Below are positions 6,680 through 9,600 of a stretch of 64,000 bases of DNA, in pieces. A program made the translations under genes and the position numbers. Source of the stretch: Dictyostelium discoideum. Taxonomy: Eukaryota. Numbering within the stretch: the first letter of the stretch is position 1; each line of letters begins with the position of its first letter. The DNA is taken from NCBI GenBank assembly GCA_000004695.1, contig CM000151.3:1760001-1824000 (forward strand), in the 5' to 3' direction. The notes under the pieces were generated by a model, which had not been told where the DNA came from, made no database searches, and was given only the letters and a program-made list of their open reading frames with translations.

Positions 6680-9600
6680 ATGGTAAATGAACATAATGTG
6701 ACATTAAGTAATTTAATAGATTTTGGGTTAATTAAACCAAATCAAGAGGTGAAATATAGTTATAGAGGTGTTTCGTATACAGGTGTTATTTTATTAAATG
6801 GGGAAATTCATACGAATGGTGTTTCTTTCACAAATCCTACACATTGGACTCGTACAATAAGCGGAAATAATTGTAGTGGTTGGGGTACTGTAAAATTATC
6901 TGGTGCAAGTGGTCCACCACTATTAAAATTAAAAAGAGAATATTTATTTAGGGTGGGTTCAACAGGAAAAAATAAAAAGAAAACTCAAAAACAACAACAA
7001 CCTCAACAACCTCAACCTCAACCTCAACCTCAACAACAACAACAACAACAACAACAACAACAACAACAACAACAACAACAACAACAACCAAATAATAATG
7101 ATAATGATAGCGAAAGTGAAATTTATAAAAAAAGCGATACAAGTGAAACTTCTGATCAAGATATTGATAATGATGATGATGATGCTGGTGGTCAAAGTAA
7201 TAATAGGACTACTACCACCACAACTACTACAACTACAACTACTACTACAAATAGGCAGAATTCTCCACAAAAAAAAATACCATCAACAGCAATAACAAAT
7301 CCAAAAGAAAAGAAAAAAGAAAAAAAAGAAAATATTTTAACAAAGAAAAAACAACAAAGCCTACAATACCAACAACAACTACAACTTTTACAAAGACAAA
7401 ATTCGCCACCAAGTGTTTCACCAAGTAGTAGCACATCAACCTCATCCTCAACCTCTTCACCTGCTTCAAATCAAATATTTAATTCATTTGGTCCAAATTC
7501 TCAAAATCATAATCAATACGGTATTAACTATAATTCTCAACAACACCAACCTCAACAATATAATAATAATAATAATAATAATAATAATAATAATAATAAT
7601 AATAATAATAATAATAATAATAATAATAATAATAATAATAATAATAATAATAATAATAATAATAATAACAACAATAATAACAACAATAACAACAACAATA
7701 ATAGTAACAATAATAATAATAATAATAATAATAATAATAATAATATTAATATTAATAATAATAATAATATTAATAATAATAATAATATTAATAATAATTC
7801 TAATAATCAACCAAATTGTTGTTCCCCTAACTCAAACTGTCAATACTATGGTTATAACCAGCAAAATCCACCAAAACACCAATATCCAAACAATTTCCTA
7901 ACAGATGGACACAATCCATCACCCCCAATACCTGTGCTACCCTTTACAAATCAAAGCCAAAATCAAAATCAAAATCAAAACCAAAATCAAAACCAAAATC
8001 AAAAGTCAAAATCAAAATCAAAATCAAAATCAAAATTTAAATCAAAATCAAAATCAAAATCAAAATCAAAATCATAATCAAAATTACTATTACCCACATT
8101 CACAACAAAATTATAATACTGAAAATAGGTATACTCAACAAATAGCTTTCCAATCAAATGACCCCAATAGTCAAATGTACCAACAACAGCAACAGCAACA
8201 GCAACAGCAACAGCAACATAATCAACAACAACTTTTATCCCACCAACATCCTCAACAACCAAATTATCCTCCACAATATAACTATCATGGTCAAATTAAC
8301 CATTCCCAACAACAACAACAACAACAACAACAGCAATATCAAGAATCAACAAATCCGCCATTTACACCAGTTTCAATGCCATACGGTGTTTTTCAAAGCC
8401 CATTATATGGTTTGCCAAATATTGAACAAGATGATATGTATGGAGGCTACCCTCCGAAATATAGCACTAGTCAAAACTTATTACCAGGTACTCCTCAAGC
8501 CAATAATAACTTTATAAATTGCTTCAATCAAACCTTTCCATCTCGTGGATACCAATCACAGCCCCACAATCTATTTTTACCTCAACAACCACAACAACAA
8601 CCATCTCCTTTAATGTCACAACAATTACCATTTGGTAATCAACAAGCATCAATTTCTTCACCAACTTCTACATCATCACCACAATTATCACAATTTTATT
8701 CAAATTATCAACAATTTCAATTGCAAATGCATCATCAACAACAACAACAACAACAACAACAACAACAACAACAACAACAACAACAACAACAACAACAACA
8801 ACAACAACAACAACAACAACAACAACAACAACAACAACAACAACAACAACAACAACAAACAATCCAACAACAACAAACAATTCAACAACAACAAACAATT
8901 CAACAACAACTACAACAACATCAACAACATCAACTACAACATCAACAACATCAACAACAACATCAACAACAACAACATCAACAACAACAACATCAACTAC
9001 AACAACAACAACAACATCAACAACAACAACAACAACAGCAACTACAACAACAACAACAGCAACAGCAACTACAACAGCAGCAACTACAACAACAAACAAT
9101 TCAACAACAACTACAACAACAGCAACAGCAACTACAACAGCAGCAACAGCAACAGAATCAATCTTTATCATCCCCAACTAGCTCAGATGCTGCAAATAGT
9201 AGCCCTTCAATATTTGATAAAAAAAGAAAAGGAAAAGAGATTGAAAAAGAGAAAAAGCCAACAGTAAAAAAGGAAACAGATTCAAAGAAACAATCTTCAC
9301 AAACCAAAAAACCTTCTCCAACATCAACATTTAAAAAAGCAAAACTAAGCAATATTAAAATTGATAACAATAATAATAATTTTAGTAATAATAACTTTAA
9401 TAATAGTAACATTAATAACAGTACCAATAATAACAGTAACATTAATAACAGTACCAATAATAACAGTACCAATAATAACAGTACCAATAATAATAATAAT
9501 AACAATAATAATAATAATAATAATAATAATTTTAATAATAATAATAGTAATAATAATAATAACAGTAACATTAATAACAGTAACAATAATAATAGTAACA

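Follow-up and report, generated by a model that had tools for sequence, protein, structure and literature searches.

A RAMA-domain gene of Dictyostelium discoideum and its relation to KMT2C/D-like proteins of other dictyostelids

The RAMA domain was defined in 2016, in a survey that also described how it had passed into eukaryotes and become joined to JAB deubiquitinases, SET, PHD and further chromatin domains; the accessible part of that survey names animals, chlorophytes, stramenopiles, rhodophytes and giant viruses, and Amoebozoa are not named there (PMC4738411). MPND and the bacterial adenine methyltransferase CcrM were described in 2023 as the sole structures containing a RAMA domain. In the MPND-DNA crystal the domain touches the DNA backbone only, via S113, S115 and W135, and replacing any one of these by alanine leaves almost no binding of double-stranded DNA. 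The RAMA domain of CcrM likewise makes backbone contacts only, the affinity of MPND is unaltered by N6-methyladenine (6mA), and the acidic regions flanking the MPND domain weaken DNA binding and favour histone binding (PMC9963953). Here we describe a gene with an N-terminal RAMA domain at positions 6680-10133 of a 64,000-nucleotide stretch of Dictyostelium discoideum DNA (assembly GCA_000004695.1, contig CM000151.3, positions 1,760,001 to 1,824,000 of the forward strand), hereafter the window. Judged from its sequence, the gene most likely corresponds to the large first exon, encoding RAMA and the disordered region, of a dictyostelid KMT2C/D-like enzyme.

The animal KMT2C/D proteins (MLL3/4; Drosophila Trr plus Lpt/Cmi) are the other system to which this locus has to be compared, and their domain order PHD-ePHD-FYRN-FYRC-SET is that of the full-length dictyostelid proteins. 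In the animal enzymes the DNA-binding module in the N-terminal half is HMG, where the dictyostelids have RAMA, and in Drosophila the N-terminal half is a separate protein. Long Q-rich low-complexity regions are found in both groups (PMC8579673, accessible part). Unlike the animal proteins, that of D. discoideum lacks a catalytic domain.

The N-terminal domain and its relatives

The open reading frame (ORF) at 6680..8077 of the forward strand encodes 465 amino acids (N-terminus MVNEHNVTLSNLIDFGLIKPNQEVKYSYRGVSYTGVILLNGEIHTNGVSFTNPTHWTRTISGNNCSGWGTV...), of which the first 100 are ordinary globular sequence and the remainder is rich in Q, N, T and S. The original prediction, made from the letters of the window, had proposed a RAMA/DUF4357-like module at 6680-7000 on the basis of a spacing pattern. 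Both the ORF and the pattern are present in the ORF list and its translation, and the proposed range spans the whole domain, although the gene itself reaches 10133. An hmmscan comparison of residues 1-110 with Pfam-A bore out the RAMA identity: PF18755 (RAMA) matched residues 4-91 with E=6.8e-16, at 58.6 bits where the gathering cut-off is 35.2, and the alignment takes in profile positions 16-104 of 107. The DUF4357 part of the label has to be dropped, since no other Pfam-A family matched these residues at E<=10, PF14267 (DUF4357) included. In contrast, bacterial RAMA copies also match DUF4357 (PF14267 in relatives P0005, P0006, P0022, P0025 and P0027) and DUF2924.

The predicted structure agrees with this assignment. 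An AlphaFold2 model built from a 30-sequence alignment (A1) of bacterial and eukaryotic members reached a pLDDT of 91.6 and a pTM of 0.80; a single-sequence model was discarded (pLDDT 44). Foldseek against the Protein Data Bank (PDB) returned only five matches with E<1e-3, all of them mouse MPND (7YDW, 7YDT; TM 0.68-0.75; 29-32% identity) or CcrM (6PBD), and the rest had E>0.3. The A1 profile found 7YDT at 3.9e-16 and 6PBD at 8e-4 among the PDB sequences; phmmer against the same sequences gave only trypsin matches with E around 0.2, which were judged spurious. The family-conserved residues L12, G41, G47, P53, G67-W68 and L81 are all present in the Dictyostelium protein; in A1, G41 and G67 are invariant and L12, G47, P53, W68 and L81 are at least 90% conserved. 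The N-terminal domain is thereby confirmed as RAMA, fold included, as the original prediction had it.

The turn and the terminal motif singled out in that prediction, NPTHW and SGW, proved to be genuine family motifs, the first aligning with SPSAW, a turn of MPND, and the second with the GW shared by MPND, CcrM and bacterial RAMA domains. In a profile alignment to 7YDT, the three contact residues S113, S115 and W135 of MPND fall on N52, T54 and W68: the tryptophan is retained, the second serine is conservatively replaced by threonine, and the first is replaced by asparagine. NPTHW and SGNNCSGWGTV are each invariant in all six dictyostelid sequences compared, and both lie within the longest invariant block of that alignment, NPTHWTRT.SGNNCSGWGTV, which includes N52, T54 and W68.

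The Dictyostelium protein differs from the characterized RAMA proteins outside this fold. Mammalian MPND (7YDT, 7YDW) has a C-terminal MPN/JAB deubiquitinase domain, and none was found in either ORF of the gene at E<=10 (Pfam); the RAMA domain of MPND sits after an acidic region, whereas that of Dictyostelium is at the extreme N-terminus. The Caulobacter adenine methyltransferase CcrM carries its RAMA domain at the C-terminus, and in a prokaryotic restriction-modification or defence system RAMA would be expected to be fused to, or to neighbour, an adenine methylase or a nuclease. No methylase or nuclease is fused or adjacent in Dictyostelium, where the protein has no other Pfam domain.

Homologues were collected with an exhaustive phmmer search of 1.84 billion representatives (E<=1e-3), which returned 32 proteins. 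The best four, from Synstelium polycarpum, Acytostelium subglobosum (two paralogues) and Tieghemostelium lacteum, matched with E of about 1e-29 to 1e-31 and 60-64% identity, and in each the domain lies at the extreme N-terminus. The others were mostly bacterial or metagenomic RAMA proteins, some fused to Mrr or GIY-YIG nucleases, with a few further eukaryotic matches (the chlorophyte Botryococcus and the malawimonad Gefionella); no RAMA protein of D. discoideum was found among the representatives searched. A word-indexed protein search was lossy: 8000 candidates were scored for low-complexity queries, and P0002 and P0004 were missed in spite of a 20-residue identical stretch. Its negatives were disregarded. 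With the Cavenderia domain added, the alignment comprised six dictyostelid sequences from five species; the D. discoideum domain is 62-66% identical to the other five, 46 of the 93 RAMA columns are invariant, and the start codon is conserved among the species compared. Proteins with an N-terminal RAMA domain followed by low-complexity sequence were thus found across the Dictyostelia (phmmer, tblastn), where the original prediction had suggested looking for the same fusion. Recent bacterial transfer or contamination was ruled out by the presence of the domain in all six sequences, the conserved start codon and the Dictyostelium-type AT-rich coding context.

One gene, its dictyostelid orthologues and the catalytic half

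A second ORF (7905..10133, 742 aa) overlaps the 3' end of the first in another frame. We treat the two as one gene because both hold motifs shared with the orthologues. PPIPxLPF lies in the first, and the second contains PFTPVSMPYGVFQSPLYGLPN, whose pattern P.TP...LPY..SPLYxLPN is common to the orthologues of A. subglobosum, T. lacteum and Cavenderia fasciculata, which places the second ORF in the same gene. The frame switches within a (CAAAAT)n repeat, one unit of which is caaaaGTcaaaat, and removal of base 8005 or 8006 in silico gives a single ORF of 1150 codons. In an independent D. discoideum assembly the product called at the same locus has exactly 1150 residues, which matches (3454-1)/3-1, and the final 1.3 kb of its coding sequence is identical to the window; assembly GCA_054883475.1 is 99.7% identical to the window over 22 kb. 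The frameshift may reflect a sequence error in the window or a genuine polymorphism. An intron spanning it was considered and rejected: in the sole GT..AG pair of a suitable length class (8005-8128, 124 nt) the donor, GTCAAA, is poor, and splicing there would leave 1109 rather than 1150 amino acids. Exact database look-ups of both ORFs and of two frameshift-corrected 1150-aa proteins gave no match, and with the merged protein as query only the A. subglobosum and T. lacteum proteins were matched in the lossy word-indexed search.

The window is AT-rich eukaryotic DNA of 14-35% GC; within the gene the GC content is 29%, against 13% in the 1 kb upstream. The flanking genes, which encode an HD-domain protein and DUF7035/ComC_SSD proteins, are ordinary eukaryotic genes. 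Just 5' of the RAMA gene, a long (AAT)n tract (6474-6588) matches AT-rich repeats at other positions, one of them the tract at 7553-7692 that encodes poly-Asn.

The merged 1150-aa protein is 25.7% Q and 22.6% N (48% Q+N). Q/N-rich tails are typical of D. discoideum proteins, and such a tail is no evidence of a prion-like nature. The original prediction had called the fusion of RAMA to a prion-like tail unusual, which was overstated, as such tails are ordinary in Dictyostelium and eukaryotic RAMA chromatin fusions were published in 2016. Within this region, PPIPxLPF and SPLYxLPN are kept amid otherwise unalignable low-complexity sequence, and acidic stretches occur at the same position in all orthologues. 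By analogy, the D. discoideum stretch at 7100-7183 parallels acidic region 2 of MPND (PMC9963953) and could be its functional equivalent, and the basic cluster at 7304-7351 is a candidate nuclear localisation signal (NLS). NTYNGNNSF (9600-9626) was considered as a relic of the end of exon 1 and rejected, its likeness to NYYNGSSVR of T. lacteum being too weak within N-rich sequence.

In two other dictyostelids these features belong to a much larger protein. T. lacteum DLAC_02336 (KYR01218.1, 1467 aa) carries RAMA, PHD, zf-HC5HC2H_2 (ePHD), FYRN, FYRC and SET (Pfam); its gene consists of an 814-codon exon with RAMA and low-complexity sequence, a 214-nt GTAAAT...AG intron, and a second exon running from PHD to SET. 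C. fasciculata DFA_05766 (P0035, 1603 aa) has the same low-complexity motifs and PHD-ePHD-FYRN-FYRC-SET, and its annotated start, MSVNG, lies just past the expected end of a RAMA domain. In C. fasciculata GL883008.1 (positions 3734-4030 of locus L005) a RAMA domain is encoded from an ATG 267 nt upstream of that start, in the same frame and with a stop before it, within one exon of 945 codons; it is 73-78% identical to other dictyostelid RAMA domains (tblastn). The annotation of DFA_05766 evidently missed the RAMA part of the exon, and the corrected protein is predicted to read RAMA, low-complexity region, PHD, ePHD, FYR and SET. RAMA-KMT2 proteins thus exist in at least two dictyostelid genera, since T. 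lacteum and the corrected C. fasciculata both encode the fusion. Non-dictyostelid best matches of the catalytic half include a KMT2D-like protein (word-indexed search), and by their domains the two proteins are putative KMT2C/D-like methyltransferases of lysine 4 of histone H3 (H3K4).

D. discoideum resembles DLAC_02336 and the corrected DFA_05766 in RAMA (65-66% identity), in the acidic and basic stretches and in PPIPxLPF and SPLYxLPN, and the gene at 6680-10133 is by sequence orthologous to the N-terminal part of these dictyostelid RAMA-KMT2 proteins. They continue into PHD, ePHD, FYRN, FYRC and SET, whereas the D. discoideum gene ends at 10133 with nothing comparable downstream in the window. 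Exon 1 ends in VR followed directly by GTAAAT in both T. lacteum (L001, 8440-8460) and C. fasciculata (L005, 6550-6580), and translation continuing into the intron meets a stop after 4 codons. In A. subglobosum, protein P0002 ends at the same exon boundary (L004, 8690-8715) with AVR-VHIS-stop, and the donor there, GTCCAC, is non-consensus. Intron retention would yield an isoform of RAMA and disordered region only.

No PHD, FYR or SET match was found in either D. discoideum ORF (Pfam), and the PHD-to-SET parts of T. lacteum and C. fasciculata had no match in the window at E<=10 (tblastn, 54 kb downstream covered), where the next genes are unrelated. PHD or SET coding was likewise absent from the 6 kb downstream of P0002. 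Both D. discoideum and one A. subglobosum paralogue lack the catalytic half at the locus. In D. discoideum, Set1 is the sole enzyme for all detectable H3K4me1/2/3 (PMC8053100), which fits the loss of a KMT2C/D-type enzyme and is not proof of it. Nothing decisive was found in the literature on a D. discoideum KMT2C/D gene.

Proposed function and alternative readings

We think it probable that the product of 6680-10133 is a chromatin-associated protein, a DNA-tethered scaffold without histone methylation of its own, and an orthologue of the first exon of dictyostelid KMT2. By analogy with mouse MPND and the C-terminal domain of CcrM, the N-terminal 95 residues would use the NPT turn and the tryptophan of SGW to bind double-stranded or nucleosomal DNA by its sugar-phosphate backbone, irrespective of sequence. 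The acidic stretch and the NLS-like basic clusters would be followed by a Q/N-rich disordered region of about 1000 residues, whose short conserved motifs presumably dock partner proteins; in sister species the same region would deliver the KMT2 catalytic module. The D. discoideum protein would be nuclear and held on DNA or nucleosomes by its RAMA domain, as a non-methylating scaffold.

Several observations weigh against this reading. The first contact serine of MPND is an asparagine (N52) in Dictyostelium, and none of the other five domains diverges as far as that of D. discoideum (62-66% identity to the others, vs 68-80% among them). The +1 frameshift leaves the copy in the window with a predicted product of only 465 residues, so that the gene is possibly decaying. 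The T. lacteum fusion depends on the predicted intron of 214 nt, although the same parts are brought together independently in the C. fasciculata gene model, and the genome-wide loss of the PHD-FYR-SET half in D. discoideum is extrapolated from the 64-kb window.

The PHD-FYR-SET half could instead be a separate D. discoideum gene elsewhere, its product acting in a complex with the RAMA protein. Drosophila offers such a case, Lpt/Cmi and Trr being jointly equivalent to mammalian MLL3/4. The halves are parted by the intron in T. lacteum and C. fasciculata, with its read-through stop after 4 codons, and are therefore naturally separable modules; P0002 of A. subglobosum ends exactly at the exon boundary, and the short motifs of the disordered region are kept in D. 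discoideum. However, PHD, FYR or SET coding was found neither in the window nor in the 6 kb that follow the A. subglobosum gene, the matches to the catalytic half (a lossy search) included no KMT2C/D-like protein of D. discoideum, and Set1 is reported as the sole H3K4me1/2/3 enzyme of D. discoideum (PMC8053100). A split gene therefore seems to us unlikely. Decay of the gene after loss of the catalytic half, with a pseudogene as its present or coming state and RAMA kept by inertia, would account for the frameshift and for the divergence of the domain, as well as for the greatly expanded Q/N repeats and the missing D. discoideum entry among the 1.84 billion representatives. The 1150 codons are nevertheless open save for one frameshift in a hexanucleotide repeat, and the other assembly calls an intact 1150-aa product. 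The start codon, the fold-defining residues, the DNA-contact loops and the motifs of both ORFs are conserved across the dictyostelids compared, and A. subglobosum likewise keeps a gene for RAMA and disordered region without the catalytic half at the locus; we give decay little credence.

Recognition of 6mA by the RAMA domain, with recruitment of the rest of the protein (in other dictyostelids, the fused H3K4 methyltransferase), is also improbable in our view. Discrimination of 6mA was what Iyer et al. 2016 originally predicted for eukaryotic RAMA domains (PMC4738411, accessible part), and the MPND domain selectively bound 6mA DNA in pull-downs (PMC6591016), in which study the RAMA domain of MYSM1 showed no such selectivity. 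Although 6mA and H3K4me3 occur together in a wide range of eukaryotes and the search for readers continues, nanopore sequencing found neither 6mA nor 5-methylcytosine in D. discoideum, which also lacks AMT1 and AMT6/7 (PMC12695648). The backbone-only contacts of MPND and CcrM, and an MPND affinity that 6mA does not change, also speak against it (PMC9963953). A historical variant, which we hold to be just as doubtful, is that the ancestral dictyostelid RAMA-KMT2 coupled DNA 6mA, read by RAMA, to H3K4 methylation, written by SET, and that in D. discoideum the loss of AMT1 and 6mA was followed by that of the catalytic half, leaving a reader put to new use. Such a coupler, if real, would give a physical basis for the eukaryote-wide co-localisation of 6mA and H3K4me3.

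What appears to be new is modest: a RAMA-KMT2C/D protein in at least two genera, two species whose locus lacks the catalytic half, a domain retained without 6mA, and a corrected DFA_05766 model. The T. lacteum and A. subglobosum proteins already carry a RAMA label in precomputed Pfam annotation; none of the papers listed as mentioning "RAMA domain", judged by title and abstract, concerns Dictyostelium. With these proteins the Dictyostelia join the eukaryotic lineages that have RAMA-domain chromatin proteins, and RAMA serves there as the N-terminal domain of a KMT2C/D-like enzyme. A tractable model that keeps a conserved RAMA domain without detectable 6mA is thus a clean system for roles of the domain beyond 6mA reading, on which two mammalian MPND studies disagree. 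None of these findings overturns current understanding.

Coordinates and other features of the window

The features of the RAMA gene and the Pfam-identified genes of the window are listed in Table 1.

Table 1. Positions (window coordinates) of the RAMA gene, its parts and other genes identified by Pfam.
Feature	Position	Strand	Remarks
Whole gene	6680..10133	plus	~1150 codons; RAMA domain and long Q/N-rich low-complexity region; stop codon 10131-10133
RAMA domain	6689..6952	plus	Residues 4-91; Pfam PF18755 match
NPTHW turn	6833..6847	plus	Equals backbone-contact loop S113-P-S115-A-W of MPND; N52 and T54 replace the two serines (profile alignment to 7YDT)
SGW motif	6875..6883	plus	W68 equals DNA contact W135 of MPND; near-invariant Trp of the family
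Acidic Ser/Thr-rich stretch DNDSESEIYKKSDTSETSDQDIDNDDDD	7100..7183	plus	Follows RAMA; enclosing 36-residue segment has 13 D/E vs 2 K/R
Basic cluster KEKKKEKKENILTKKK	7304..7351	plus	NLS-like; composition scan; counterparts at same position in orthologues
PPIPVLPF motif	7922..7945	plus	First ORF, low-complexity; PPIPxLPF invariant in 6/6 aligned dictyostelid proteins
+1 frameshift site caaaaGTcaaa	8000..8010	plus	Inside (CAAAAT)n Gln-Asn repeat; extra base ~8005
Motif PFTPVSMPYGVFQSPLYGLPN	8358..8420	plus	Frame of ORF 7905-10133
Second basic cluster DKKRKGKEIEKEKKPTVKKETDSKK...	9216..9311	plus	Composition scan; KKRK-type clusters also in orthologues
HD-domain protein	1007-2209	minus	Pfam
Actin	21191-22321		Pfam
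Sec7-PH protein	31640-34521	minus	Pfam
FNIP repeats	42335-43549		Pfam
PAP2	46966-48204	minus	Pfam
Malic enzyme	52002-53462		Pfam
Counting-factor-associated CfaA/B/C protein	61204-61872	minus	Pfam

The whole window contains no tRNA gene that we could find, and Pfam gave no match at E<=1e-4 for a 1129-aa ORF at 57666-61055. A segment of about 260 bp, 87% identical between its two copies (18473-18729 and 20348-20613), is shared by adjacent genes of the minus strand whose products have 423 and 586 aa. Tandem paralogues of the DDB_G0272540 family lie at 23043-25077 and 26373-28282, with about 90-92% DNA identity. In the upstream copy the reading frame is interrupted, which leaves two ORFs (23066-24115 and 24125-25018); in the downstream one, an ORF at 26396-28249 matches KAM9951887.1 exactly and is identical to DDB_G0272540 (AX4) over 603 residues.

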